This document shows, piece after piece, positions 1,071 to 40,810 of a stretch of DNA of 64,000 bases (its first letter is position 1; every line of letters starts with the position of its first letter). Below the pieces are notes generated by a model, which ran no database searches, was not told the origin of the DNA, and saw only the letters and a list, made by a program, of their open reading frames with translations. The stretch is from NCBI GenBank assembly GCA_042408215.1, contig JAYFMW010000022.1:35974-99973 (forward strand), given 5' to 3'. A program made the position numbers and the translations under genes. The DNA comes from Microcoleus sp. Its GTDB lineage: Bacteria > Cyanobacteriota > Cyanobacteriia > Cyanobacteriales > Microcoleaceae.

Positions 1071-2165
1071 GACCTTAATATTAATTGCAGCGTTAACATC
1101 TCTATCGTGATAACTGCCACAATTAAGACAAATCCACTCTCTAACATTTAACTCTTTTTTGCCACCGCGAAAACCACAGCAAGAGCAAGTCCCAGAAGTG
1201 GGAGTCCATCTATCAATCACTCGAAAATCACGACCGTACATTACCGACTTAGCCTCTAACATAGTTCTAAAACTACGCCAGCCTAAGTCGCTAATAGCAC
1301 GGGACAACCTGCGATTTTTCATCATACCTGAAACATTCAAATCTTCCAAGACTATTGTTTGGTTTTCACGAATAATCTTAGTTGACAGTTTGTGAATAAA
1401 ATCATTTCGAGTATCAGAAATTTTAGCGTGAAGTTTAGCTAATTTTTTTCTAGCCACTTCCCTTCTTTTACTCCCTTTTTGTTTTCTTGACAAATTGCGC
1501 TGTAATTTTCTTAAACGCTTTAACTGTTTCTTTAAAGGTTTAGGTGATTTAACTTTTTCACCGTTACTTAAAGTAGCAAAATCAGTTATTCCTAAATCAA
1601 TTCCTACACTTGAACCGTTCTTAGGTAATTGTTGAGGATTAAACTCAACGACAAAGCTAACAAAGTATCTATCAGCACTATCTTTGATGAGGGTAACACT
1701 GGAAGGAATAGCTGGTAATTGTCTACTCCAGATTACTTGGATATCACCTATTTTAGCCAGGTAAATATAATCAGAATCAGGAGCGAGTTTAAAACCATTA
1801 CCAGTGAACTTAGCAGACTGTTTAGACTTACGTTTTTTAAATCTAGGCGGTTTAACTTTCTTGCCTTTTCTTTGTCCTTTACAAGATTTGAAAAAGTTTG
1901 AATAAGCCTGCTCTAAATCTCTCAAAGACTGTTGCAATGGAATAGAGGAAACTTCTGTTAACCATTGTTTTCCCTCCGTTTTTTTGATTTCTGTAAGTCT
2001 TTTAGAAAGTTCAATGCTAGAAGGTTTTTTATTCCCGTTTTGCTCCTCCTGTTTGCAATATGCTAAGGCATCGTTAAAGACTACCCGACAACAACCAAAC
2101 AATTGAGACAAAAGCCTCTTTTGTTGGGTTGTTGGGTAGATTCGATAGCGATACCTTAATTTCAT
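939..2165 (-). CDS. tnpB: RNA-guided endonuclease TnpB (IS605 OrfB)
   Basis: N-terminal RYRIYPT...LFGCCRVVFN HTH; RuvC motifs GIDLG, VLEDL and DRDVNAA; CxxC...CxxC zinc ribbon; catalytic D/E/D all present. Confidence 0.95.
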   Translation of the reverse strand: MKLRYRYRIYPTTQQKRLLSQLFGCCRVVFNDALAYCKQEEQNGNKKPSSIELSKRLTEIKKTEGKQWLTEVSSIPLQQSLRDLEQAYSNFFKSCKGQRKGKKVKPPRFKKRKSKQSAKFTGNGFKLAPDSDYIYLAKIGDIQVIWSRQLPAIPSSVTLIKDSADRYFVSFVVEFNPQQLPKNGSSVGIDLGITDFATLSNGEKVKSPKPLKKQLKRLRKLQRNLSRKQKGSKRREVARKKLAKLHAKISDTRNDFIHKLSTKIIRENQTIVLEDLNVSGMMKNRRLSRAISDLGWRSFRTMLEAKSVMYGRDFRVIDRWTPTSGTCSCCGFRGGKKELNVREWICLNCGSYHDRDVNAAINIKVAGGLSETLNGRGGRRKTTAKVAVAIEASTQPEFKQLSIFDLLK

Positions 2166-2189
2166 TGACTTATTTTGCCCTGGGAATAC

Positions 2190-2217
2190 ACTCTAATTAT
2201 AGAGTTGCTTTTAGAGT
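2190..2217. promoter_or_regulatory. Candidate operator between tnpB and the RHH gene
   Basis: ACTCTA-ATTA-TAGAGT palindrome (2190-2205) plus a second TAGAGT half-site (2212-2217). Confidence 0.4.
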
Positions 2218-2370
2218 ATGTCAAGAGCTAAAAAAATTCAATTCAATGTCAATGAAAGCGAATACCAACAACTTAAAGAATATGCAGAATTTCTTAATAT
2301 TTCAATGGCTGAAGTCTTGAGGGATTATATTAAGTCTTTGGAAATCCGTCCTAGAAGGACGGGGTTTTAA
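2218..2370 (+). CDS. CopG-like ribbon-helix-helix protein (50 aa), below the ORF-track cutoff
   Basis: MSRAKKIQFNVNESEYQQLKEYAEFLNISMAEVLRDYIKSLEIRPRRTGF*: alternating beta-strand, helix, then the 'S-AE-LR-YI' second helix; the stop lies within the IS left end. Confidence 0.75.
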   Translation: MSRAKKIQFNVNESEYQQLKEYAEFLNISMAEVLRDYIKSLEIRPRRTGF

Positions 2371-2463
2371 ACCCAAATCTCTGATCGGGGAGTTTTGAGT
2401 TAATTTCCAGATTCCCGACTTCTTGAAGAAGTCGGGAATCTGGAAGTTGAATCCTTCTCAAAA

Positions 2464-2901
2464 ACAGGCAAGATGCCTGTTCCACAAAGAGTGAGTTTTC
2501 TGGTATTGCTAATACTATAACAGGCAAGATGCCTGTTCCACAAAGAGTGAGTTTTCTGGTATTGCTAATACCATAACAGGCAAGATGCCTGTTCCACAAA
2601 GAGTGATTTTTCTGGTATTGCTAATACTATAACAGGCAAGATGCCTGTTCCACAAAGAGTGATTTTTCTGGTATTGCTAATACTATAACAGGCAAGATGC
2701 CTGTTCCACAAAGAGTGATTTTTCTGGTATTGCTAATACTATAACAGGCAAGATGCCTGTTCCACAAAGAGTGATTTTTCTGGTATTGCTAATACTATAA
2801 CAGGCAAGATGCCTGTTCCACAAAGAGTGAGTTTTCTGGTATTGCTAATACTATAACAGGCAAGATGCCTGTTCCACAAAGAGTGATTTTTCTGGTATTG
2901 C
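2464..2901. repeat. Tandem array of 8 x 56-bp units containing the REP-like palindrome ACAGGCAAGATGCCTGTTCCAC
   Basis: Units start at 2464, 2520, 2576, 2632, 2688, 2744, 2800 and 2856 and are near-identical; dispersed copies at about 13489, 13553, 46224 and 48627. Confidence 0.95.
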
Positions 2902-2906
2902 CAAAA

Positions 2907-3575
2907 CTATTCCTGTTCCCAAGCGGCCACAGCTTCCCATCCCAAACCGCGGCGAACAATAGTCGGTTCGCTGTCCGTTAAATCGAGAATGGTAGACACT
3001 TGATATCTCGGATCGGAACCGTCATCGACAATGACATCTACCAACTTGTCAAAACTGTCAAACAGTTCAGCTTTACCAAAATTTTCTGTTTGAGCGGCCA
3101 CAGCTACAGGTGCTTCACCTTCATCATCTGCACTAATGTGAGCGGAAGTTGAAATAATCGGATTTCCCAAGGCTTCCAATAGTGTAAAACAAATTGGGCG
3201 ATCGGGAACGCGAATTCCCGTGGTTTTGCGTTTCGGGTTCATCACCAGCCGCGGTACTAACTTGGTAGCTGGTAGCAGAAACGTGTAAGGTCCGGGAATC
3301 AACCGTTTGATAATTCGGTAAGCCTCATCGCTGACAACGGCGTACTCCGCAATATTTGACAGAGAAGAACAGAGGAACGTTAAGGGCTTATCATTGGATA
3401 GTTGCTTGATCTGCCTGACTCGTTCGATCGCAGATTTGGCATTGAGGTCGCAGCCGATCGCATAAACCGTATCTGTCGGGTAAAGCATCAAGGCACCACC
3501 TTTAAGGGCATCTTTAATCTTCTCTATCCGCTCTTTTTGGGGTGTAACTGGATGCAGTTCGTAAATAGTTGCCAT
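2907..3575 (-). CDS. L-threonylcarbamoyladenylate synthase family protein (Sua5/YciO/YrdC)
   Basis: YPTDTVY, PGPYTF, GIRVPD and STSA motifs; likely start MATIYELHP. Confidence 0.9.
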   Translation of the reverse strand: MATIYELHPVTPQKERIEKIKDALKGGALMLYPTDTVYAIGCDLNAKSAIERVRQIKQLSNDKPLTFLCSSLSNIAEYAVVSDEAYRIIKRLIPGPYTFLLPATKLVPRLVMNPKRKTTGIRVPDRPICFTLLEALGNPIISTSAHISADDEGEAPVAVAAQTENFGKAELFDSFDKLVDVIVDDGSDPRYQVSTILDLTDSEPTIVRRGLGWEAVAAWEQE

Positions 3576-3650
3576 GTTAAGATATTGCAGGCTAAGTGGG
3601 CGATCGAAATATCCGGTCAAACAATCAATGATGAAAATTAATTGTCAATA

Positions 3651-5060
3651 ATGAATAAAATAGCTTATTTTGAATGCCCAACCGGCATTGCTGGCGATAT
3701 GTGTCTCGGTGCCCTCGTCCACGCCGGCGTACCTTTGGAGTACCTGATCGAAAAACTCAATTTGCTCGGCATTTCGACAGAGTACCAATTGCGCGCCGAA
3801 TTAGTCCACCGCAATACTCAGCAAGCAACTAAAGTTTATGTCGATTTAACTTCGGATTTGCGGGAAAAAGCCCAAAATCCCACTGCTGACTCCACCTTCG
3901 AGCCCTCAGAAACAGAATCCCCAACTTTCGATCGCAGCCACCACCATCATCACGGTGACGAACATTCTCACAGTCACGACGAGGGCGATGCCGAAATTAG
4001 CCACAATCCTCATCGCCACTTGCCGCAAATTGAGCAAATCATCCTCTCTGCAAAGTTGCCAAAGCGTGTAGAAGCCTGGAGTTTGGCCATATTTCGGAAA
4101 TTGGCAGAAGCAGAAGGTGCCGTACATGGCATCCCCCCAAAGGAGGTTCACTTTCACGAGGTGGGGGCTACGGATGCACTTGTGGATATTATCGGTACTT
4201 GTTTGGGTTTGGATTGGTTCGATATTGACGAATTTTACTTTTCGGCGATGCCGACTGGTGGCGGTACGGTGAAAGCGGCCCACGGCAGATTGGTGGTGCC
4301 GACGCCGGCGGTGATGCGGTTGTGGGAAATGCACTCGGTGCCGGTTTACAGCAATGGGATCGATCGCGAATTGTGCACGCCTACGGGAACTGCGATCGCC
4401 TGTACTCTGGCTGAGGGGTTTGGCCCGCCACCAGAAATGCAAATTCGGGCGATCGGATTGGGTGCCGGTTCTCGAATGCTGGCAATTCCTAATATTTTGC
4501 GCCTCTGGATTGGGGAGAAGGCAGAAGGCAGTTCGGCAACGGATTCTGTAACGGATTTAACGGATTTAACGCCGGGAAGAAAGAGGGAAGTATTTAAACA
4601 ATGCCCAATTCCTGATTCCCTAGAAACTATTGCGGTGTTGGAAACACAAATTGACGATTTGAGTCCCCAGGCGATCGGCTATGTTTTTGATGCTTTGTTT
4701 GTCGCCGGATCCCTGGATGTTTTTACTCAACCAATTGTGATGAAAAAGTCGCGGTTGGGGGTTTTGTTAACTGTGATTTGTCATCCCGAAACTCAAGCAG
4801 CTTGCGAAACAGTGATCTTTCGCGAAACTACTACTTTGGGAATTAGGCGATCGACTCAACAAAGAACGATTTTGCACCGAGAAATCCAGACTGTTCAAAC
4901 AGAATACGGTGAAGTGCAAATAAAAGTTGCGAAGACTGGACAAACAATTACTAATGTGCAGCCAGAATACGAAGATTGCGCGGAAATTGCCAGACTTAAA
5001 AATATTAGCTGGCGGGAAGTTCATCGCTTGGCGCTGCAAAGTTGGTACGATCGAACTTAG
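3651..5060 (+). CDS. larC: Nickel pincer cofactor biosynthesis protein LarC
   Basis: GIAGDM, His-rich segment, VHFHEVGA-D, TPTG, ETQIDD, MKKSR-G, ETTTLGIR, PEYED. Confidence 0.92.
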   Translation: MNKIAYFECPTGIAGDMCLGALVHAGVPLEYLIEKLNLLGISTEYQLRAELVHRNTQQATKVYVDLTSDLREKAQNPTADSTFEPSETESPTFDRSHHHHHGDEHSHSHDEGDAEISHNPHRHLPQIEQIILSAKLPKRVEAWSLAIFRKLAEAEGAVHGIPPKEVHFHEVGATDALVDIIGTCLGLDWFDIDEFYFSAMPTGGGTVKAAHGRLVVPTPAVMRLWEMHSVPVYSNGIDRELCTPTGTAIACTLAEGFGPPPEMQIRAIGLGAGSRMLAIPNILRLWIGEKAEGSSATDSVTDLTDLTPGRKREVFKQCPIPDSLETIAVLETQIDDLSPQAIGYVFDALFVAGSLDVFTQPIVMKKSRLGVLLTVICHPETQAACETVIFRETTTLGIRRSTQQRTILHREIQTVQTEYGEVQIKVAKTGQTITNVQPEYEDCAEIARLKNISWREVHRLALQSWYDRT

Positions 5061-27692: not shown

Positions 27693-28160
27693 ATGAGTTT
27701 GCACCGTCTCCTTTTGTCTGCCTTCATTCTAGTAACTATCAATTTTACAACAAGTACATCGATCGCTTTGGCTGAAACTAAGGAAACCTATTTTACAGTA
27801 AATTCCGATGATAGTCAATCTTTTGCCAGCTTAGTTCAGCAGGCGGAAGATTTAGCCGCATTGTCGATCGCCCGTGAGTTCCAAGAAAATCCCGGATTGA
27901 CAGAGGTGACGATTATAGTTACAGCGGATCGCAGCAGACGTATGGTTCCAGTTTTGCGATCGAGAGTATCTCGCAACCAGTGGCAAAAAAATTCGCGAAT
28001 CGAACAGTGGACTAGATATTTTGCTGATTCTCAATACCTGTTGGGATTCAGAGATAGCTATATTTCTTCGGCCAATTCAGGGCGATCGCCAACTATTAAC
28101 GTACCACCACCTAGTCGCCCAGCATCCAGACAAAATGACCCTGGTTTTCGAGATGACTAA
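27693..28160 (+). CDS. Hypothetical secreted cyanobacterial protein
   Basis: Signal peptide; ends DPGFRDD. Confidence 0.7.
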
Positions 28161-28345
28161 TGGGGCATGGGGAATTGGGAATTGGGAATTGGGCATGGGG
28201 AATTGGGAATTGGGAATTGGGAATTGGGAATTGGGCATGGGGCATCGGGAATTGGGAATTGGGAATTGGGAATTGGGCATTGGGCATTGGGCATGGGGAA
28301 TTGGGAATTGGGAATTGGGAACAAATAACCAATAACTAATAACCA
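28161..28345. repeat. Heptamer STRR tract (GGGAATT/GGGCATT)
   Basis: More than 20 tandem 7-mers; source of several spurious ORFs. Confidence 0.95.
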
Positions 28346-28348
28346 ATT

Positions 28349-28401
28349 ATTAACCAAAATATAATCTTACTTTAATTAACCTTCACGTTAACTTCCCTTA
28401 A
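28349..28401 (+). promoter_or_regulatory. Candidate SphR Pho box upstream of phoX
   Basis: ATTAACCA-aaa-TATAATCT-tac-TTTAATTA: 8-bp repeats at an 11-bp period resembling CTTAACCT, with further TTAAC copies downstream. Confidence 0.5.
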
Positions 28402-31397: not shown

Positions 31398-31610
31398 GTA
31401 AGCCCATCTCCAAAAGCTAAATACCCAGAGCCCCGACTTCACCCAAGAAGTCGGGCTCTGAAATATTAGTCTCAAGCGAGAGGGACGAAAGTTTGTGTAG
31501 TAGCGATCGCCTCGCCTAGTAAATTGTCAAGTTTTTTTGCGAAACAGACTTGACAATTTAGTAAAGTGGTAAGGATAATGGGATTAAGACCCTGACCTCG
31601 GATTTGAGTG

Positions 31611-32327
31611 ATGAAAAGGAGTCAAGTCAACACAGCAGAGTTAATTCGCAGACAGATTGAGGAACGGCCAGAAGGCTATTGGCGGCACTCTGACTTTTCT
31701 AACCTGCCGTCAACTGCGGTCAGCAAGGCACTTTCCCGAATGGCGGAAAACGGAATTTTGGAGCGAGTCAGCAAAGGACTATACTATCGATCGCGCCCGA
31801 CTCGATTTGGTCGCAGTCGTCCCTCTCCAAGCGATATCCAAAAACTGCTGACAAAACAGAACTTGCATCCGGCTGGACTGAGTGCGGCTAATTTATTGGG
31901 GTTTACCACTCAAAACGCAATTCAAGGTGAATTTGCTACCTCAGCGAACAGTGTCCCCCGCACTATAATTGGTTCTCGCGCCCGACTCCACACTCGCAGA
32001 CCTGAAACTTGGAATCGCTTAGAAGCGACTGATGCAGCAATGCTTGATTTTTTAAGGTCTAGGGGTAAGTTGAGCGAGTTGTCTCTGACGGAGACTAAGC
32101 AAAGGTTGCTAGACTATTTTCGAGAAGGATCTCGCTTTGAACGTTTGTTGGCAGTTGCAGATGCGGAACCGCCACGAGTACGAGCTATGCTGGGTGCGAT
32201 CGGACAGGAACTCAGAAAGAGTCTTAAAGAGCTAGAAAAACTCCGAAAAAGCCTAAATCCAGTCTCTCGGTTTGATTTTGGTAACTTCAGCAATCTGAGT
32301 TATGCCAAGGAGTGGCAAGCCGAGTGA
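31611..32327 (+). CDS. Type IV TA antitoxin, AbiEi-like (DUF6088-type)
   Basis: N-terminal wHTH (KALSRM---G-LERV-KGLYY), AAN-LG-TTQ. Confidence 0.8.
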   Translation: MKRSQVNTAELIRRQIEERPEGYWRHSDFSNLPSTAVSKALSRMAENGILERVSKGLYYRSRPTRFGRSRPSPSDIQKLLTKQNLHPAGLSAANLLGFTTQNAIQGEFATSANSVPRTIIGSRARLHTRRPETWNRLEATDAAMLDFLRSRGKLSELSLTETKQRLLDYFREGSRFERLLAVADAEPPRVRAMLGAIGQELRKSLKELEKLRKSLNPVSRFDFGNFSNLSYAKEWQAE

Positions 32328-33283
32328 AAATGTTTGAACATCCTGATTTCCGCGATGCTGTCATCGCAGCTAGGGAACATTTCGATCGCTTTGGACTCAC
32401 CGAACAATTCATCGAGAAAGATTACTATGTCACCTCGGCGCTGCGAATTGTGGCGAATCAGTGGCGTACTCAAGTCATTTTTAAAGGCGGAACCAGTCTC
32501 TCGAAGGGGTGGAAACTGATAGAACGATTCTCGGAGGATATCGATCTGTTTTTGAACAAACAGGCATTCGTTCCTCCCCTTGGTGCAAACAGAATTGATC
32601 GAGAATTAGCAGCAATCGAAAGTGCTGTGGGAGAGCATCCTGCTTTGACGCTAGAACCTGATTCGTCCAAGCGGAAGCGGGGGGTTTTTCGCAATAGCTA
32701 TTTCAGCTACACTCAGCAATTTTCGGGGAATCAGGCGATCGCCAATCGTGTATTCTTAGAAATGGGAACTCGCAGCGGCACTTATCCTACGCAGACTGTA
32801 CAACTGTCTTCCTATGTGGCTGAATTTCTGCGTGAAATTGGGCAGAGTCTTGATACTGAAGATGAATTGCCTTTCTCTATGCTATTGCTGGACTTTCGGC
32901 GCACCTTTGTTGAGAAGCTGTTTGCAATTCACTCTAAAGTAGTGAAGATTCAGCAGGATGGGCAATCAATTGGAACCTACGCCAGACATTACTACGACCT
33001 GTTTTGTTTAGCTCAAAAGTCCGAAGTGCGCCAAATGTTCCAAACTGAGGAATACAGCCAGATTAAAGAGGATTGCGATCGCATTAGCCGCGAACACTTC
33101 CCAGATGATCGGCCGCCGTCAGCGATGAAATTCTCAAACAGTTCGGCTCTCTTCCCAACTGGAGAACTGCGTCAAACTATTGCTAGAGAATACGAACAGC
33201 AGTGCGGTAGACTCTGCTATGGAAATTATCCAACATGGGAGGAGATTGAAGCTTGTTTTGAAGAACTTCGCGATCGACTTTGA
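32324..33283 (+). CDS. Type IV TA toxin, nucleotidyltransferase AbiEii/AbiGii
   Basis: IEKDYY, FKGGTSL-K, RFSEDID, EKL, RHYYDL; GTGA overlap with the antitoxin. Confidence 0.92.
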   Translation: MKMFEHPDFRDAVIAAREHFDRFGLTEQFIEKDYYVTSALRIVANQWRTQVIFKGGTSLSKGWKLIERFSEDIDLFLNKQAFVPPLGANRIDRELAAIESAVGEHPALTLEPDSSKRKRGVFRNSYFSYTQQFSGNQAIANRVFLEMGTRSGTYPTQTVQLSSYVAEFLREIGQSLDTEDELPFSMLLLDFRRTFVEKLFAIHSKVVKIQQDGQSIGTYARHYYDLFCLAQKSEVRQMFQTEEYSQIKEDCDRISREHFPDDRPPSAMKFSNSSALFPTGELRQTIAREYEQQCGRLCYGNYPTWEEIEACFEELRDRL

Positions 33284-33441: not shown

Positions 33442-34818
33442 TTATAACCCTTTGATATATTCCCTGATTACTGGCGGCAGAGTGTAAAAATTTGCTTGTT
33501 GTTCAATCCAGCAGCGCCGCGATAGAGATTGCAGCGAATTTACCAAATTTGACAGCGGAATCATGTCATTTTCTAGCAGTTTTGCCCGGTTGATTGGCTG
33601 GCTTTCTTTCGCCAACAAGGAGATTACTTGTTTTTCTAGTTCCGATAGGCGATCGAACTGCTGCTGTAAAACATCTTTCAAATCTTCCGGCAACAATATG
33701 GTATCATTTGGTAATAACTCTGTCACGCCTCCACCCAATTCTTGAATCAGACTGGCCACGCTTTTTAACCATAACGGGTTGCCTTGGTAGCGATGAATGA
33801 GTGTTTCGCTGTTGTCGATTTCTGCTAACCCATTATCTCTCAGTATTTCCCCGGCGGCTGCGATGTCTAAACCTTTGAGTTGTAAAGTACGAATGGGAGT
33901 ATTTTGGTTTTTAACTTGAGTCACTTCTCTGGGTTGTTCCCAACCGATTAGCAGCAAGCAACTTTGATGGGATAATTTTTCTATTTGTTTGAATAAAGAG
34001 CGATATTCTTCGGATTCTGGTTTATATTTTCCTGCAAATTCGCCGCTACAGAAAAGGTGGTGAACGTCATCTAAAACTATTAAACATCGATGGTTTTGTA
34101 AATACTTAATCAGCGGTAAGTGTTTCTGGTTTGTTGGGGATGAATCTTGTTTTTCTGAGTTGGATAAAAGCTGTATTAGGTTAGATTGAAATTTATCTAT
34201 GGTGGGGAATTCGTCTAGTGTGTACCAAACTGCGTACTCAAACTCGTCTTTGATTTGTTTTACGAGTTGTACTGCTATGGTGGTTTTGCCGATTCCGCTG
34301 ATACCGATGAGGGTAATCATGCGGCTGTTTTGTTGTAGAATCCAGGTTGTGAGGGTTTGGAGTTCGGAAGTGCGATCGTAAAAATCACCCAACTCTGGCA
34401 TTTCGCTTAAATCGTGATGTAAAGTTGGGGTTTGTTGTGGGTTAGAGGTTTGCTGATTGGGTGGGTGTGAGTTTGGGATGTTTGGCGGGTGTCTAGCTTC
34501 TCCACAATAATTAACGCAACTTATTTGCACACAGTCTTGTGCAAAATGCGAAACAATGGAGACTTGGAACCTCTCCATTGCCGATCTAAAATTTTTTTTA
34601 TTAATATCTTCTCCCAACTCTTCTGAAAATATCTGCCATAATTCCGATCCGATTTCCCTGATACGACTTTCAGAACAGTCAAAGTCTTTCGCTATTGCTT
34701 TGTATGTCTCACGTTGTAGAGTGCCTTTGAGTACCGCTTCCTGTAAATCGTCAAGGTGTTGACCCGTTTTAGCAAATACTAGAGCGTCAGCGAATTTTAA
34801 CATTTCTTTAAGATTCAT
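33442..34818 (-). CDS. NB-ARC/STAND NTPase with an N-terminal wHTH and no C-terminal repeats
   Basis: FYDRT-EL, GISGIGKTT, LIVLDD, GNPL-L; ends Y-L-PVIREY-K. Confidence 0.85.
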   Translation of the reverse strand: MNLKEMLKFADALVFAKTGQHLDDLQEAVLKGTLQRETYKAIAKDFDCSESRIREIGSELWQIFSEELGEDINKKNFRSAMERFQVSIVSHFAQDCVQISCVNYCGEARHPPNIPNSHPPNQQTSNPQQTPTLHHDLSEMPELGDFYDRTSELQTLTTWILQQNSRMITLIGISGIGKTTIAVQLVKQIKDEFEYAVWYTLDEFPTIDKFQSNLIQLLSNSEKQDSSPTNQKHLPLIKYLQNHRCLIVLDDVHHLFCSGEFAGKYKPESEEYRSLFKQIEKLSHQSCLLLIGWEQPREVTQVKNQNTPIRTLQLKGLDIAAAGEILRDNGLAEIDNSETLIHRYQGNPLWLKSVASLIQELGGGVTELLPNDTILLPEDLKDVLQQQFDRLSELEKQVISLLAKESQPINRAKLLENDMIPLSNLVNSLQSLSRRCWIEQQANFYTLPPVIREYIKGL

Positions 34819-35088
34819 CTGGTTAGGTAGATGCGATTATTTTATGTATTATAACTCACATCTGCCAACATTTTCGTACATTTTCGTACAGTCTCGTACA
34901 AAGCCAGATGAAAGAGAGTGAAACTGGGGGTAAATTGGCGGCAAAATAGGACATTTTGGGGCTAGACAAAGTTTTGATTTGTAAGGAATAATGGGAAAAG
35001 TATAAAGCGTAAATTCAAAGATTAAACCCTTGCCGCTTTATAGCCTCTATTGTTGTGTTAAAACGCCTTAATCGTGTTGTGAAATAAT

Positions 35089-36012
35089 ATGAGCCGTAAG
35101 AGCCGTAAGGGTCTAGCAATCATAAGTATTTACTTATTCCTCTTAATTGTTATTATATGGTGGATATTTTCTTCTAATTTTCCACATCCAGAAGCTGCTG
35201 TAACTATTGTAATTTTCGTATCTGGTGCAATTGGAGCATTGTTATTTAATCCTCTCCGAGACGAATTAGATTCTTTTATTAGTAATTTATTTATCGAACA
35301 AACAATTTATAGGATTTGCATTTTTGGTCGCCCTGGCAGTGGTAAAACTACTTTTATAGAAACTGCTTTTACGCTCGCAGATCCCGATAAAAATAGAAAA
35401 TCAACTGATGCTTTTGACTATTATCATTTCCAGATTCAGTTCGGATTAAATAACTCCCCCCTGCGGGAAGTGGCAATAGCGGACTACAAAGGGCAAAAGC
35501 CCAGTCAGGTAATACTGGAAAGTTCGCCAGACTTTTTTGGTGCTGAAGGTCGTCGTGTAATTAATGCGATTTTATTCATTGTAGATATTGTCCCTAGAAA
35601 AAGTGACGAACATGGCAACCCGCTTAATGATGAATCTCTACTTAAGTGGCTTAGTGAGGGAAATATCTTAGAGAAAATAAAATTCAGAGTTCAAGAACAA
35701 TACGAATACATTAATCAAGCTTCCTTAGAATTACTCCTTACTAGCTTACATAGCAAAAACTTGAAAAGTGTTATATTTGCGATCAATAAATTAGATATAA
35801 TTGATAAATTGATCGATCGCGGATATTTAGATATCAGCCAATTTCAGAATTCTACAGAGTATGCTGAACATCATTTTGAAAGGATGAGCAACGAAATTGA
35901 GAGAGCTTGTTCGGAATCGAAGATAGAAAATTTTTCAAGTTTTACAATATCTGCAAAAAAGACAGACGATCTTAAACCTTTAATCCGCCGTCTATTAACA
36001 GGAGGGAATTGA
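35089..36012 (+). CDS. Membrane-anchored P-loop GTPase (TRAFAC-like)
   Basis: Two N-terminal TM helices; G1 GRPGSGKT, G3 DYKG, G4 NKLD, G5 SAK. Confidence 0.8.
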   Translation: MSRKSRKGLAIISIYLFLLIVIIWWIFSSNFPHPEAAVTIVIFVSGAIGALLFNPLRDELDSFISNLFIEQTIYRICIFGRPGSGKTTFIETAFTLADPDKNRKSTDAFDYYHFQIQFGLNNSPLREVAIADYKGQKPSQVILESSPDFFGAEGRRVINAILFIVDIVPRKSDEHGNPLNDESLLKWLSEGNILEKIKFRVQEQYEYINQASLELLLTSLHSKNLKSVIFAINKLDIIDKLIDRGYLDISQFQNSTEYAEHHFERMSNEIERACSESKIENFSSFTISAKKTDDLKPLIRRLLTGGN

Positions 36013-36014
36013 AT

Positions 36015-36284
36015 ATGTCTGAAGAACCACCGAAATATAGCGATTCTGGAGAACAGGTAGACTATAAAGTTATCAAGTCTTATGGACGTGCCAGTAGATC
36101 CATTGTACCCAATAACTTATATTATACAGTTGCTGTTGTTATCATCGTTTTAATTTATTTTGTGACAATTTTTCAGACAGCAGAATTTAGAGAAACAGTG
36201 GAAAAAAGAGTAACACAATTGGAAAAAAGAGTAACGGAATTGGAAACAAAGCTTACTAAACTAGAATCTCAGCGATCGAGATAA
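36015..36284 (+). CDS. Small TM + coiled-coil protein
   Basis: Abuts the GTPase stop; one TM helix; heptads VEKRVTQLEKRVTELETKLTKLE with a 21-bp internal duplication. Confidence 0.7.
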   Translation: MSEEPPKYSDSGEQVDYKVIKSYGRASRSIVPNNLYYTVAVVIIVLIYFVTIFQTAEFRETVEKRVTQLEKRVTELETKLTKLESQRSR

Positions 36285-36411
36285 ATTTATGTTCTGAGAG
36301 ACCTTATCGGTTAGCTTGACGCTCCTGAAACCCAACCACTTTTTCCCCTCACCATCTGATCGCGTTGGAAATTGTCTGAGGTACGCGGTCCTTACACGGC
36401 AGGTAGCAGGT

Positions 36412-36647
36412 AGGGACACTCAAGCGTGCCCATTGGTGTCAACTTAACGTCAAACCCAGTCAGAGACTGCTGTTTGACTATTAAGCCTAGATCCCCCCTA
36501 GCCCCCCTTCCCAAGGGGGGGACAAGAGTCTTCTCAAAGTCCCCCTTCTTAAGGGGGATTTAGGGGGATCTGGACTCAGGTAAAAACGAGATTTATCAAG
36601 GCTTTCAGGCTTAAGTTGACACCTATGGGCACGCTTGAGTATCCCTA
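36412..36647. mobile_element. About 236-bp MITE (family C) with 37-bp inverted ends, carrying a family D hairpin
   Basis: TAGGGACACTCAAGCGTGCCCATTGGTGTCAACTTAA...TTAAGTTGACACCTATGGGCACGCTTGAGTATCCCTA; near-identical to 50621-50858. Confidence 0.9.
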
Positions 36648-36687
36648 CTCAGGCGATCGCGCCACCACAAGAAACCGCTTCCAACCC

Positions 36688-37128
36688 AGAAACCGGGTTT
36701 CTCAAATAGCTGTTGCATCTCAACCGAGATTTGGTTAAGAAACCCGGTTTCTCATCCCCACGCGATACGGCCCAGAAACCGGGTTTCTCAGATCACTTTT
36801 GTCTCCCAACCGAGATTTGGTTAAGAAACCCGGTTTCTCATCCCCACGCGATACGGCTAAACCCAGAAACCGGGTTTCTCAGATCACTTTTGTCTCCCAA
36901 CCGAGATTAGGTTAAGAAACCCGGTTTCTCATCCCCACGCGATACGGCTAAACCCAGAAACCGGGTTTCTCAGATATCTTTTGTCTCCCAACCGAGATTT
37001 TATTCAGAAACCCGGTTTCTCATCCCCACGCGATCGCGCTCACAAGAAACCGGGTTTCTCAAATAGCTGTTGCATCTCAACCGAGATTTGGTTAAGAAAC
37101 CCGGTTTCTCATCCCCACGCGATACGGC
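36688..37128. repeat. Tandem array of 5 x 86-91-bp units, each with AGAAACCGGGTTTCT...AGAAACCCGGTTTCT inverted repeats
   Basis: Units start at 36688, 36774, 36865, 36956 and 37045. Confidence 0.9.
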
Positions 37129-37580
37129 CACCATCAGAAGCCGCGATGATGATTGTAGAGGTCGCGATACGGCCCCATATTAAATTTAACTTCATTTTTT
37201 CTTTTCGCCATGTTCCCCTTGATAATGCGATGATTGTACTGGTAGCGATCGCCCCATTAAAACGAATAGCGTGAATCTGATGATTTCGCTGAACCGCTGG
37301 AAGATTTAAAGGAATATATATAACATGGAATCCCTGTCTCGTAAATAGCGTGACTTGAGAGCAGTCCAATCTCTCATAATCCTTCTATTGATTGTTTTTA
37401 TCTCAGACTCCAGAAACTTCGATCGATTCTAGCTTACCTCAAAGCTGTTCGCATTTACCAGTATCTTGACATCAGGATTTACTAGCGCTCTTTGCTTGCC
37501 AAAAGAAGCCGTTTAATTAAGTTTTATGTAGGCATTTGGAATCAAGGCTAAGCTAGATGTAATAAAACACTATAGCTTGT

Positions 37581-39737
37581 ATGAAAAAAATGCTTTATTC
37601 ACTTTTGCCTAAATCTCAAATCAAAGTTCGGGTTTTAAAACAGTTAGCAGCCACTGTTTCGGCTGCCTTAGCTCTCAGTGCAATTAGCACTTTGAAACCC
37701 TCGCCAGTAACGGCTGCTGGCGATATCCCCCTAGCACAAACTCCGACTCAGCTAGCAGCAAAACCTCCCAAGTTGCTGCGGAGCCAGCTACCTCAAAATA
37801 CTGTTGCTGTGCAGACAGTGCAGATGGACTTATTGGATGGAATTATACCAATTGTTTTCGGCGGTGCGGTGCTGATTTGTATTCCGCTATTTTTTGGCGG
37901 ATTGGTGGTAATTGGCGATCGCGAAGTTGGCATTGTCAGTAAAAAGTTTAGCTTTGGTGGCAAGTCTTTACCCCCCGGTGATTTAATTGCCTTAAACGGA
38001 GAAGCTGGATATCAAGCTGATACTTTACCTCCCGGTTGGCACTGGGGTTATTGGCCTTTGCAATACAATGTTCGCAAAGAGTCTCTAACTGTGGTTCCAC
38101 AAGGTGAAATTGCTTTAATTATCGCCGCAGGCGGCGCGTCGATTCCGCCACAGCGGATTCTTGGTAAAATCACAGAATGCGACAATTTTCAAGATGCTCG
38201 CAAATTCCTTAAAAGCGGTGGGGAAAAAGGCAGGCAATTGGGGATTATTACTGGCGGCAGTTATCGGATTAATACCGCACTGTTTACGGTAATTACAGCA
38301 ACAAATGCTGCCAAACACGGGATGACAGCGGAACTGTTGAAATTGTACAAAATTGCCCCAGATAAAGTTGGAATTGTCACCACCTATGACGGTGTTCCGA
38401 TTCAAGATGGCGAAATTGCAGGCCCGATTATTCCGAATCACGATAACTTCCAAAACGCGCAGAAATTTATCACCGGCGGCGGGCGGCGCGGCTTGCAGGA
38501 ACAGGTTTTGCTTTCCGGTTCGTGGAACTTAAATCCTTGGTTTGTCGGGGTGGAACAAGCAGCGATGACTGAAATCCCGATCGGCTATGTTGGCGCTGTT
38601 ATTTCCTATGTCGGTAAAACGTCAGAAGATGTGAGCGGCGCTGCTTTCACTCACGGCAATTTAGTAAATGTAGGGAATAAAGGGGTGTGGATAACTCCTC
38701 TTTATCCGGGAAAACATCCGCTGAATACTCGCATTTTGAAGGTAGAGTTAGTGCCGACTACAAATATTGTTTTGAATTGGTCAAGTAAAACGGAACGGCA
38801 CAGTTACGATTCTCAACTTTCCTCTTTAACGGTGCGTTCTCGCGACGGTTTTGCCTTTGATTTAGAAGTAGCTCAAATTATTCACGTCGGCGCTTTGGAT
38901 GCTCCGAAAGTCATCTCTCGCGTGGGTTCGATGCAGAACTTAGTTGACCACGTTTTGCAGCCGACAATTGGGAATTATTTCCGCAATTCGGCTCAAGCTT
39001 ATTCTGTGTTAGATTTTCTCTCTGCAAGGAGCGATCGGCAAGCCGAAGCCGCGGAGTATATCAAAGCAGCTTTGCGTACCTATGATGTGCAAGCAATTGA
39101 TACTTTGCTCGGGGATATTTTGCCGCCCGCAGAGTTGATGCAAACTCAAACCGATCGCAAAATTGCTGAGGAACAATGCAAGACTTATGAAGTGCAGCAA
39201 TTAGCGCAAACTCAGCGGCAACAATTGGTGCGAGAAACGGCGCTGGCTGAGATTCAGCAAGAGATGGTCAAATCCGAGCAAGGTGTCAAGATTTCTGAGT
39301 TGAAAGCGAATTCTCAGGTGAAACAAGCTCAAGGCGAAGCTGAGTCGATTCGGGTGAAGGGAAATGCTCAAGCTGAAGCTTACCGCGCGGGTGTTGTTGC
39401 TTTGGGTGGTTCTGGTTATACGGCTTTGCAGTTAATGCAAATTATTGGCGATCGCCATGTGCGAGTTGTGCCGGATGTTGCTGTTAGCGGCAGCGGTAGC
39501 AGTGGGGGTTTAGTTGATGGTTTGCTGGGGATGATGATGTGGAATCAAACTAGCAAAAATGGAGAAAATGGTGGGGAATTACCTGTAGTTAAGTTACAGA
39601 AATCGGAGCCTGCTGTTTTGGAATCTGCGGCCAAGTTGCCGATAGCAAAGGTGCAATCTCGCGCTAATTCGCCCGTTGCTAAGTCTGAGGCTGATATTGA
39701 TTCGCTGTTTGATGAATTGCCGTTTGACGATCTTTGA
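37581..39737 (+). CDS. SPFH/band 7 (flotillin-like) membrane protein, paralog 2
   Basis: Co-linear with 13750-15846 (ADTLPPGWH, GGRRGLQEQV-LSGSWNLNPWFV, GNYFRNSAQ). Confidence 0.85.
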   Translation: MKKMLYSLLPKSQIKVRVLKQLAATVSAALALSAISTLKPSPVTAAGDIPLAQTPTQLAAKPPKLLRSQLPQNTVAVQTVQMDLLDGIIPIVFGGAVLICIPLFFGGLVVIGDREVGIVSKKFSFGGKSLPPGDLIALNGEAGYQADTLPPGWHWGYWPLQYNVRKESLTVVPQGEIALIIAAGGASIPPQRILGKITECDNFQDARKFLKSGGEKGRQLGIITGGSYRINTALFTVITATNAAKHGMTAELLKLYKIAPDKVGIVTTYDGVPIQDGEIAGPIIPNHDNFQNAQKFITGGGRRGLQEQVLLSGSWNLNPWFVGVEQAAMTEIPIGYVGAVISYVGKTSEDVSGAAFTHGNLVNVGNKGVWITPLYPGKHPLNTRILKVELVPTTNIVLNWSSKTERHSYDSQLSSLTVRSRDGFAFDLEVAQIIHVGALDAPKVISRVGSMQNLVDHVLQPTIGNYFRNSAQAYSVLDFLSARSDRQAEAAEYIKAALRTYDVQAIDTLLGDILPPAELMQTQTDRKIAEEQCKTYEVQQLAQTQRQQLVRETALAEIQQEMVKSEQGVKISELKANSQVKQAQGEAESIRVKGNAQAEAYRAGVVALGGSGYTALQLMQIIGDRHVRVVPDVAVSGSGSSGGLVDGLLGMMMWNQTSKNGENGGELPVVKLQKSEPAVLESAAKLPIAKVQSRANSPVAKSEADIDSLFDELPFDDL

Positions 39738-39824: not shown

Positions 39825-40244
39825 TTAGGCCGCATTACCAACAACTTGATGCAGTGGAAAGAAAACAGCCGGCGAGACACTGAAAAACTCTGCAAGTTTT
39901 TGTATGTGTTCTGTTGTAAGTTGACGCTTTTCATGGAGGATATCTGAGACAATAGACTCGGTTTTAAAAATAGGAACTAGGTCTTTTTGTCTCAGGTCAA
40001 ATTCTTCTATTAAAGCCTTCAACAGTTCTACTCCGTAAATGTCAGGTATGGGTTCTAAAGTTTGCTCGTATTCATAAACCAGAGTTCCAAGTACGTTTAG
40101 ATAGTCACGTTCGTCTGAAGTCAGTTCGCCTTTGTCCAACAGAGAATCGATCGCTTTTTGAGTTGCAATTAATTCCTCCTCAGCAGTTATGGGTCGCGGC
40201 GGAAATGTTTTGAGTAGTTCGATATAAGCGCTAGAATTTTTCAT
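39825..40244 (-). CDS. higA: HigA-type antitoxin (HTH)
   Basis: PRPI--EEE, L-TLV-EYE, QKDL--IF--ES-VS-IL--KR-LT. Confidence 0.88.
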   Translation of the reverse strand: MKNSSAYIELLKTFPPRPITAEEELIATQKAIDSLLDKGELTSDERDYLNVLGTLVYEYEQTLEPIPDIYGVELLKALIEEFDLRQKDLVPIFKTESIVSDILHEKRQLTTEHIQKLAEFFSVSPAVFFPLHQVVGNAA

Positions 40245-40281
40245 GTGAGTATGCAAGATTAAGAAAGTAGAACACGATCGT

Positions 40282-40361
40282 TAGACATCTCCAGAAAAGC
40301 CTGTAAAGGGCAGGCAGGATGCCTAACCCCTACTCCCGACAATAATTATTCGAGATGTCTA
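40282..40361. mobile_element. 80-bp miniature inverted-repeat element between higB and higA
   Basis: TAGACATCTC...GAGATGTCTA with TA at both ends; related copy at 48600-48670. Confidence 0.8.
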
Positions 40362-40667
40362 TTCATACCACGGGTCTTTTTTCCATTGATCTTCGTCGTA
40401 TTCTTCATGTGTAAGTACAGCTCTAATAAAAACTTTTTTAGGTTTAAATTCATAATCTATGAAAGTAATCAGTCTGTAATTATTACCTCTGATGTTAAAG
40501 ACAGTAAAGTTACCAACTCGATCGGCAGAGGAAAAAACTGATTTCACTTCAGCTAGATTTGACCACTCGGCTATTGTCGCAATTTTGTACCAATAGCGCA
40601 GGCTTGTTTCGGCATCAGGATGCTTTTCCCAAAATTTCCTGAGCGCTGATTGAGAGATAACGTGCAT
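40359..40667 (-). CDS. higB: HigB-type toxin (mRNA interferase)
   Basis: MHVIS--ALR-FW--HP, VFNI-GN-YRLI, LTH-EYD. Confidence 0.9.
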   Translation of the reverse strand: MHVISQSALRKFWEKHPDAETSLRYWYKIATIAEWSNLAEVKSVFSSADRVGNFTVFNIRGNNYRLITFIDYEFKPKKVFIRAVLTHEEYDEDQWKKDPWYE

Positions 40668-40810
40668 ACAGTTCCTGGATAACAAATAAATTTACGCATC
40701 GATGAGGCTCCCGCTAGAATCGTTTTAATGTTATCTTAGCAAATTGCGAAGTGATTTGTCAACTCCGATCGCAGTACAATTGATGAATATTGCATCTGAG
40801 GAATTTACCC

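Follow-up and report, generated by a model that had tools for sequence, protein, structure and literature searches.

A two-gene membrane module in an AT-rich segment

Two genes lie end to end on the forward strand of the window, by which we mean the whole 64-kb stretch of cyanobacterial DNA that was analyzed. Gene A (positions 35089 to 36012, + strand) encodes a 307-aa GTPase of the Ras superfamily (TRAFAC) whose N terminus is predicted to form a transmembrane hairpin; the family has no name. Gene B (36015 to 36284, + strand), whose ATG at 36015 falls two bases past the stop codon of gene A, encodes an 89-aa predicted single-pass membrane protein that consists of a disordered N-terminal tail, a hydrophobic segment (residues 35 to 53), and, directly after that segment, a coil of heptads (residues 54 to 88). 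The heptads are encoded by a 21-bp tandem repeat (36199 to 36251, + strand; 2.5 copies, 90% matches), the copy number of which differs among relatives. Each gene is present in one copy in its genome.

This anatomy agrees with a sequence-only reading of the same DNA, which had described an AT-rich segment with a two-pass membrane GTPase, an abutting single-pass heptad protein, and a 21-bp duplication in the coil of the latter. The AT richness stands out at the genome scale: the GC content of the pair is 0.349 versus 0.451 for the genome, only 32 of 6,140 same-size tiles are equally low, and its GC3 ranks 67th among the 3,578 genes of the genome. The same reading had pointed to the absence of a perfect HIP1 site from the segment, in a HIP1-rich cyanobacterium (39 sites across the window). 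The absence is true of the pair but uninformative, because it is shared by 2,892 of the 6,140 tiles (47%), and we therefore discarded it as a sign of foreign origin.

Predicted Ras-type fold and membrane anchor of gene A

All five G motifs were found in gene A: the G1 P-loop GRPGSGKT (residues 80 to 87; 35326 to 35349, + strand), G2 Thr106 (35404 to 35406, + strand), G3 DYKGQ (residues 132 to 136; 35482 to 35496, + strand), G4 NKLD (residues 233 to 236; 35785 to 35796, + strand), which is followed by a helical insertion with a weak likeness to G-alpha, and G5 SAK (residues 288 to 290). In a 95-row alignment of homologues, G85, G135, and K234 are conserved in 95/95 rows, K86 and D132 in 94/95, and T106 and D236 in 92/95. 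The G3 motif had initially been regarded as unusual, but it is a canonical DxxG followed by Gln (76/95 homologues; Glu in 14/95), and its Tyr (93/95) is the sole mark of the family within DYKG. Ahead of the G domain, two helices (residues 5 to 28 and 34 to 67; 35101 to 35289, + strand) are predicted from the model and a hydrophobicity tally to form a transmembrane hairpin, and in the model the second helix extends as a linker. Two N-terminal hydrophobic segments are likewise predicted in 80/95 aligned homologues.

The model of gene A (pLDDT 94.4) has a six-stranded G domain of the Ras type, in which additional helices follow strand 4 and NKxD and a stalk is absent; the last G-domain helix (residues 292 to 304) ends the protein. 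Foldseek retrieved chains of Gtr1, Rab6, and G-alpha with E values close to 1e−8. By VIA-align, the best matches were LokiRagO (Z = 16.9), RagD and a viral Rab (16.2 each), the GTPase chain of a tubulin-cofactor complex, which we take to be Arl2 (16.2), Rab3C (16.0), Gi1 (15.8, 180 residues aligned), and Gs (15.7, 187 residues aligned); overall, the top matches have Z values of 15.7 to 16.9, rmsd of 2.6 to 3.2, 163 to 187 aligned residues, and 16 to 20% identity. Because the Rag, Arl, Rab, and G-alpha rows largely tie, a single parent cannot be named. The 50 rows listed by each of the two fold searches include no dynamin-like chain, and dynamin-like proteins (LeoA, DynA, Eleos) were rejected as relatives on the missing stalk; one homologue of gene A matched LeoBC, in the P-loop only (E = 0.011).

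Neither gene A nor gene B reaches any curated cutoff in Pfam or NCBIfam, and neither has a convincing match in PADLOC. Gene A maps to none of the housekeeping GTPase families of Pfam and NCBIfam, an outcome that would have refuted the sequence-only reading. The Atlas returned only the probable own cluster of gene A (0.97), with all other leads under 0.9. Judging from motifs and modeled fold, gene A is a member of the Ras-like TRAFAC superfamily that is predicted to bind and hydrolyze GTP.

Distribution and phylogeny of the gene A family

A profile search retrieved 313 representatives at E ≤ 0.001 and 93 at E ≤ 1e−30, so the family, for which there is no curated model, comprises at least 93 clusters (50% identity, E ≤ 1e−30). 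Named close homologues come from Microcoleus, Argonema, Limnofasciculus, and Symploca. With a close profile, gene A relatives were detected in 6 of 401 genomes of the phylum and in 4 of 144 genomes of the taxonomic family, all 4 of them within its own genus (4/79 genomes). With a wide profile, relatives were found in 5/401 genomes in the class, 15/251 in the order, and 0/201 in another phylum, that of genome G1176. All of these genome counts are lower bounds, as few candidates were scored per genome. In taxonomic family f5, the wide profile matched 138 of 389 genomes, and the 15 best matches (E ≤ 2.3e−21) were retained; those left out are short stretches in long, probably Roco-type ORFs, and long ORFs of this kind matched the wide profile weakly (E of about 1e−9 to 1e−11). 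Gene A itself is not a Roco protein, given its 307-aa length and the absence of COR and LRR matches.

One homologue of gene A is labeled Chloroflexota; the neighborhoods that we examined are those of cyanobacterial loci and one metagenome contig. The family was not found in the plasmids and phages searched. Three matches on viral contigs were dropped because they cover the P-loop only, and locus L088 has no ORF of the family. Among 10 genome-contig and 12 metagenome-contig loci, L003 and L021 are real relatives, and the other 9 and 11, respectively, were dropped as P-loop matches. A longer, fused form of gene A was not seen among proteins of 539 to 2,000 aa, which is weak evidence against one; P0145, with 20 repeated stretches, was dropped as spurious. 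G domains do occur fused behind a TIR domain (P0093) and behind pentapeptide repeats (P0124 and P0039).

A tree was built from 34 intact G domains; five broken genes were excluded, and the tree carries a long-branch warning. In it, the window protein falls inside a nine-row clade (support 99/98) drawn from at least five families, with members from its own genus, Microcystis, f76, f5, f67, and a metagenome contig. Such a composition fits horizontal spread. Together with the patchy distribution and the low GC content, it makes the horizontal acquisition proposed for this segment look right.

A different history may apply to family f14, where 9 of 13 genomes carry a GTPase without an adjacent partner (loci L092 to L100). 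These solo GTPases form one clade (100/99), and their inheritance looks vertical. Their neighbors are housekeeping genes, among them ORFs that by eye resemble clpP or polA. Domestication of the GTPase, or a partner encoded elsewhere, would be possible explanations.

Gene B partners share an inner motif and differ in their outer domains

To quantify the linkage, we tallied one locus per genome or contig (39 in total, 33 near-family and 6 sister-clade) and counted as a partner any gene on the same strand that encodes one hydrophobic segment and starts between −32 and +110 bases of the GTPase stop codon. A partner follows the GTPase at 22/33 near-family and 6/6 sister-clade loci, whereas a single-pass gene follows only 67 of 1,379 genes of the window's own genome (4.9%); many of the loci are closely related, so these counts overstate independence. 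A broken remnant of the partner is present at L102, and an adjacent partner is absent from 10/33 near-family loci, namely, the nine f14 loci and L074. The pair is thus conserved, as the sequence-only reading had required, and we conclude that genes A and B are a real, conserved two-gene module.

The tails of the partners carry a short motif. In gene B, it is Val-Asp-Tyr (residues 15 to 17; 36057 to 36065, + strand), which we propose as a docking site for the GTPase. The pattern hydrophobic-[DE]-[YF], which was defined after inspection of the data, occurs in the tails of 20/22 partners versus 5/67 controls, lies 16 to 34 residues ahead of the membrane segment, and is missing only from the partners at L077 and L101. 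Folded alone, gene B has a low-confidence, disordered tail and a single helix from residue 33 to 88, and short docking motifs typically sit in disordered tails. The sister clade (L037, L080, L081, L082, L087, and L104; E of 1e−21 to 1e−29), whose GTPases mostly have one predicted membrane segment, has a tail of its own: it starts with MSNWR(D/E) in 6/6 partners and carries the hydrophobic-Asp-Tyr motif in 0/6. Given that each clade has its own motif and that the two are split in the tree with 100/100 support, the type of tail tracks the clade of the GTPase.

These observations bear on the idea that the two genes are functionally independent pieces of cargo that were transferred together. Solo GTPases at 10 loci would be expected under that idea, but the linkage spans deep branches and a clade-specific tail motif persists in partners that otherwise change, and we consider independence very improbable.

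The part of the partner behind the membrane segment is variable. By eye, 14 of the 22 outer domains are coils with varying numbers of 7-residue repeats; one is a coil plus HTH_3, six are beta-sandwiches (two with weak CarboxypepD_reg matches, the remainder assigned by alignment), and one is a Peripla_BP_6/ANF domain (above the cutoff). In the sister clade, the outer domains include a coil, a B_lectin domain (above the cutoff), domains of unknown type, and a WD40 ORF behind a stop codon; at L037, the partner ends just past its membrane segment, and the tail and the GTPase are intact. Charge bias favors an N-in/C-out orientation in 25/27 partners (L076 and L080 are contrary), and at L075 the HTH domain is placed on the predicted outer side. 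The predicted topology of gene B is therefore N-in/C-out with the coil facing outward. A constant inner peptide combined with a swappable outer domain amounts to a receptor-like anatomy, in which, we infer, the tail acts on the linked GTPase.

The presence of an anchor, a GTPase, and a coil in one module could also describe a machine for membrane fusion or remodeling, in which a dynamin- or atlastin-like GTPase works with a SNARE-like coiled partner. This had been one of the options of the sequence-only reading, and true dynamin-like genes do fill the same genomic slot in other genomes (see below). However, the modeled G domain is of the Ras type and lacks both stalk and helical bundle, Rag, Arl, Rab, and G-alpha head its structural matches, the prediction places the coil on the far side of the membrane, and 7/22 partners have a non-coil domain, often of a ligand-binding type, in its place. 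A fusion machine is hence the least probable of the explanations that we weighed, and a receptor-like switch fits better.

A STAND gene heads a variable cargo slot

A divergent gene (33442 to 34818, − strand) encodes a 458-aa HTH-NB-ARC (STAND) protein with an HTH-like N-terminal part. This gene and about 200 bases of intergenic DNA have matches in 79/79 genomes of the genus, and, among the matches listed, the match runs on through the pair in only 3/78 other genomes. The STAND gene likewise faces the pair at L146, from family f76. Since loci outside its own genus and f76 lack the STAND gene, it is not a third core component of the module.

We took 39 high-scoring matches of the slot (L107 to L145) and scanned 25 of their cargo proteins. 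The most common cargo, in 18/39 slots, is a 193-aa Gly/Ala-rich protein without annotation, in many cases with a 114-aa hydrophobic protein behind it; neither has a Pfam or PADLOC match at E ≤ 1e−4. Other GTPases are present in 3/39 slots, two of them dynamin-like or LeoA/BC-like, and further cargo comprises an SNF2-type helicase, an RTX-vWA protein, and TPR, RDD, and unknown proteins. Individual slots hold a three-gene unit without a library match (L109, positions 1491 to 4420), a LeoA/LeoBC-like GTPase pair (L140, 284 to 3776), and a DrmD/BrxH-like helicase (L143, 776 to 3940).

The shared intergenic region contains a 10-bp tandem repeat (34868 to 34900; 3.3 copies) and an inverted repeat, CAAAAT-N5-ATTTTG (34942 to 34958, + strand), either of which is a possible operator. 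Just past the inverted repeat is a sigma-70-like match, TAGACA..AATAAT (34963 to 34992, + strand), a possible promoter of the cargo; the promoter scan alone is not significant (6 sites versus 4.8 ± 2.0 expected). The 10-bp repeats are conserved in this region, and an inverted repeat precedes TAGACA in 26/44 loci under a strict pattern and in 36/44 under a loose one, and four loci alter both arms with symmetry preserved. We suggest that the HTH-STAND gene is likely a transcription regulator that heads a cargo slot in the genus.

A precedent is XssQ of Synechocystis PCC 6803, an HTH-STAND protein and demonstrated transcription activator of exopolysaccharide genes (PMC8205485). Compared by the architecture described in the available part of that paper, both proteins combine an N-terminal HTH with a STAND ATPase, and both genes face a conserved, repeat-bearing promoter region (PMC8205485). 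Differences lie in the XssQ site, AAGTTXXAC, which is unlike the palindrome in the window, in XssR and XssS, which were not seen here, and in the variability of the cargo (PMC8205485).

Fast protein evolution and no defense island found

The GTPase gene is broken at 5/33 near-family loci, and at three of them (L070, L079, and L086) the partner is intact. Pairwise dN/dS values of gene A range from 0.26 to 0.78, but they come from few estimates, and relaxed selection or recombination could explain them. Between L034 and L038, the GTPase has a dN/dS of 0.50, the STAND gene 0.23, and two flanking enzymes 0.02 and 0.08. In 4/4 pairs, the part from G1 to the switches has a higher dN/dS than the C-terminal half, and sequence change is visible around both switch regions. 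The patchy spread, the low GC content, the high dN/dS, and the swappable slot suggest a role in conflict, and the broken GTPase genes, the dynamin-type occupants of the slot, and the TIR and pentapeptide fusions point the same way. The f14 clade, with its solo GTPase, counts against it.

One form that such a role could take is a toxin-antitoxin or abortive-infection system, in which gene A would be toxic (for example, through a hairpin that depolarizes the membrane), gene B would be its inhibitor, and the outer domain would be a trigger or incidental. Under that explanation, one would understand why a broken GTPase sits beside an intact partner, why among close relatives the partner is more conserved (dN/dS of 0.07 to 0.32) than the GTPase (0.39 to 0.78), and why the effector gene precedes the inhibitor gene; the frequent toxin-antitoxin genes in the neighborhoods also agree with it, although these are raw counts without a background rate. 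Yet 10 loci have an intact GTPase and no adjacent partner, and swapped lectin or solute-binding domains would be needless for a plain antitoxin. We therefore regard this explanation as unlikely, if still one to reckon with.

Among 95 neighbors from 20 loci, we found no clear defense-system gene or defense island, and the defense neighborhood that the sequence-only reading had held out as a check did not emerge. The PADLOC matches in this set are RecQ, FtsH, UvrA, and two small domains; the neighbors are mostly housekeeping genes, with scattered toxin-antitoxin genes (YhaV, YafQ, PIN/FitA, and Phd). In the window, an AbiEi-like gene and an AbiEii gene (PF08843, above the cutoff) form a type IV toxin-antitoxin pair beyond the STAND gene (31608 to 33283), which was not seen at other loci of the family. 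Downstream of the module are a gene for a 718-aa SPFH/Band 7 protein (37581 to 39737), which is not a conserved neighbor, and a HigB-type toxin gene with a probable antitoxin (39825 to 40685).

The lack of defense neighbors would also be expected if the module served signaling without conflict, as a niche-specific receptor-GTPase switch that governs the envelope, sheath, motility, or biofilm. In keeping with this, the GTPase appears to be vertically retained in 9/13 genomes of family f14, the slot also carries RTX-vWA, TPR, and RDD proteins, XssQ, the model for HTH-STAND proteins, switches on exopolysaccharide genes (PMC8205485), and Group 1 Rup systems have been proposed as signaling modules (PMC4316618). 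Against it, no kinase, cyclase, or regulator output gene accompanies the pair outside the STAND slot, and fast evolution with frequent breakage is unusual in core signaling. On balance, we rate signaling without conflict as unlikely and as the foremost competitor, by a small margin, of the reading proposed below.

Contigs of three RNA runs touch genes A and B. The intergenic repeats are covered far deeper than the genes, so DNA in the RNA libraries is likely. Five copies of a 91-bp intergenic repeat occupy 36683 to 37129, and the adjoining region (about 36390 to 36680) has very deep coverage in public contigs and is thus probably a dispersed high-copy element. Elsewhere in the window, short tandem repeats at 28021 to 28357 give rise to spurious GIGNWEL/PIPNSQF ORFs in several frames.

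Comparison with known GTPase systems

For bacterial Ras-like GTPases, we relied on PMC4316618, whose authors we take to be Wuichet and Sogaard-Andersen.

Group 1 Rup proteins are bacterial Ras-like GTPases, found in cyanobacteria among others, with a proposed role in membrane signaling (PMC4316618). As in our pair, the GTPase is encoded beside a membrane-spanning protein with an outer domain (PMC4316618). In the available part of that paper, however, Rup members are 150 to 240 aa, as opposed to 307 aa and a predicted membrane hairpin in gene A; Group 1 lacks the G3 Gln that gene A keeps in DYKGQ; and three additional genes, a kinase or cyclase output among them, accompany the GTPase, compared with two genes in all here (PMC4316618). 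The four-gene Rup set, with its kinase or cyclase output and TM-OmpA protein, was absent from the neighbors of the 20 loci.

DO-GTPase systems place a TRAFAC GTPase at the membrane (13% have N-terminal TM segments) in multicellular hosts (PMC7159879), and they resemble the module in having variable components that carry beta-sandwich or ligand-binding domains on the outside (PMC7159879). As described in the available part of the paper, they have a conserved Walker B Glu, where gene A has Gln and its family has Glu in only 14/95 members, and they often include paired paralogues and zinc ribbons, along with GAP1 and GASH or FNIII components, none of which was seen here (PMC7159879). No GAP1 family member was found among the partners or 69 scanned proteins (E ≤ 1e−7), and the PF19993 match to gene A covers the P-loop only (E = 0.073). 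The likeness to GTPase-centered conflict systems that the sequence-only reading had drawn thus holds as an analogy, but it does not extend to the Walker B Glu or a GAP1 gene.

Conservons combine a membrane sensor with a small GTPase of the Ras-like type in one operon and are described from Actinomycetota only in the available part of PMC13343842; unlike the pair, they have four core proteins, including a histidine kinase, a roadblock protein, and an MglA-type GTPase (PMC13343842). MglA and conservon GTPases are marked by an MglB roadblock gene within four genes or by the histidine kinase CvnA, and this mark was not seen here, with no roadblock family among the scanned neighbors; gene A also retains the G3 Asp that MglA does not (PMC4316618). 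The module resembles all three kinds of system (Group 1 Rup, conservon, and DO-GTPase) in that a Ras-type/TRAFAC GTPase is paired with a membrane component, but it lacks the defining marks of each.

Among the eukaryotic-type matches, Rag/Gtr1 proteins have the same fold but carry a C-terminal roadblock domain, of which gene A has none, and Rag, Arl2, Rab, and G-alpha proteins use lipid anchors in place of a membrane hairpin. G-alpha has an all-helical domain between G1 and G2, where gene A has only 18 residues up to Thr106. The catalytic Arg of G-alpha lies three residues before the G2 Thr; gene A has Arg103 at that position, but only 17/95 homologues keep an Arg there. Among the top fold rows, the longest alignments are those to G-alpha, PF00503 matches 20/31 close members weakly (E ≤ 0.01; best score of 28.1 bits versus a cutoff of 48.8), and when the C-terminal half alone, which excludes the P-loop, serves as the profile, G-alpha-i comes out first (weak E of 0.038), in register at NKxD. 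We treat the likeness of gene A to G-alpha as a lead only.

We found no description of the gene A/B family in the open-access literature covered. The available part of the supplements of PMC7159879 gave zero matches to three family motifs and one accession, and that of PMC4316618 contained nothing relevant. The available part of the Juk preprint makes only a mention of JukA fused to a Ras-like GTPase (10.1101/2022.09.17.508391). The two-gene module is apparently new to the literature.

A proposed receptor-G-protein switch

We propose that the module is a minimal receptor-G-protein switch with a stress or anti-infection output, a reading to which we assign a probability of roughly 0.45 and in which binding and output are both inferred. 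The GTPase would be held in the membrane by its predicted two-helix anchor, and the outer domain of the partner would detect a stimulus at the cell envelope. By docking on the GTPase, the inner hydrophobic-Asp-Tyr peptide would determine the nucleotide state of the latter, perhaps by GEF- or GDI-like control, and the GTP-bound GTPase would then likely trigger a stress or anti-infection response. The STAND protein would activate the pair. Because no effector gene accompanies the pair, the output would be a host target, reached via the fast-changing switch regions, or the hairpin of the GTPase itself. Of the fusion, pore, and sensor functions that had been floated for the segment, a sensor is the best match; that earlier account had not included G2 Thr106, the motif in the tail, the exchange of outer domains, or the slot headed by the STAND gene upstream.

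A bolder version, which we consider quite unlikely, would make gene A a membrane-tethered relative of G-alpha without the helical domain, gene B an interchangeable single-pass receptor that switches it directly through its short cytoplasmic tail, and the module an innate-immune sensor of cyanobacteria.

Implications

Further candidate conflict genes of this genus could be collected from the STAND-headed slot. Small-GTPase circuits described from bacteria depend on a histidine kinase, a roadblock GAP, or multiple accessory proteins. The tail of a single-pass protein with exchangeable outer domains that couples directly to a membrane-anchored Ras-type GTPase would, if true, be a new wiring, and the two-gene unit is small enough for reconstitution and for re-engineering as a modular sensor. 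The weak likeness to G-alpha makes the origin of G-alpha testable by phylogeny. If the bolder version above proved true, the module would be the simplest known receptor-G-protein circuit and a candidate relative of the ancestor of G-alpha.
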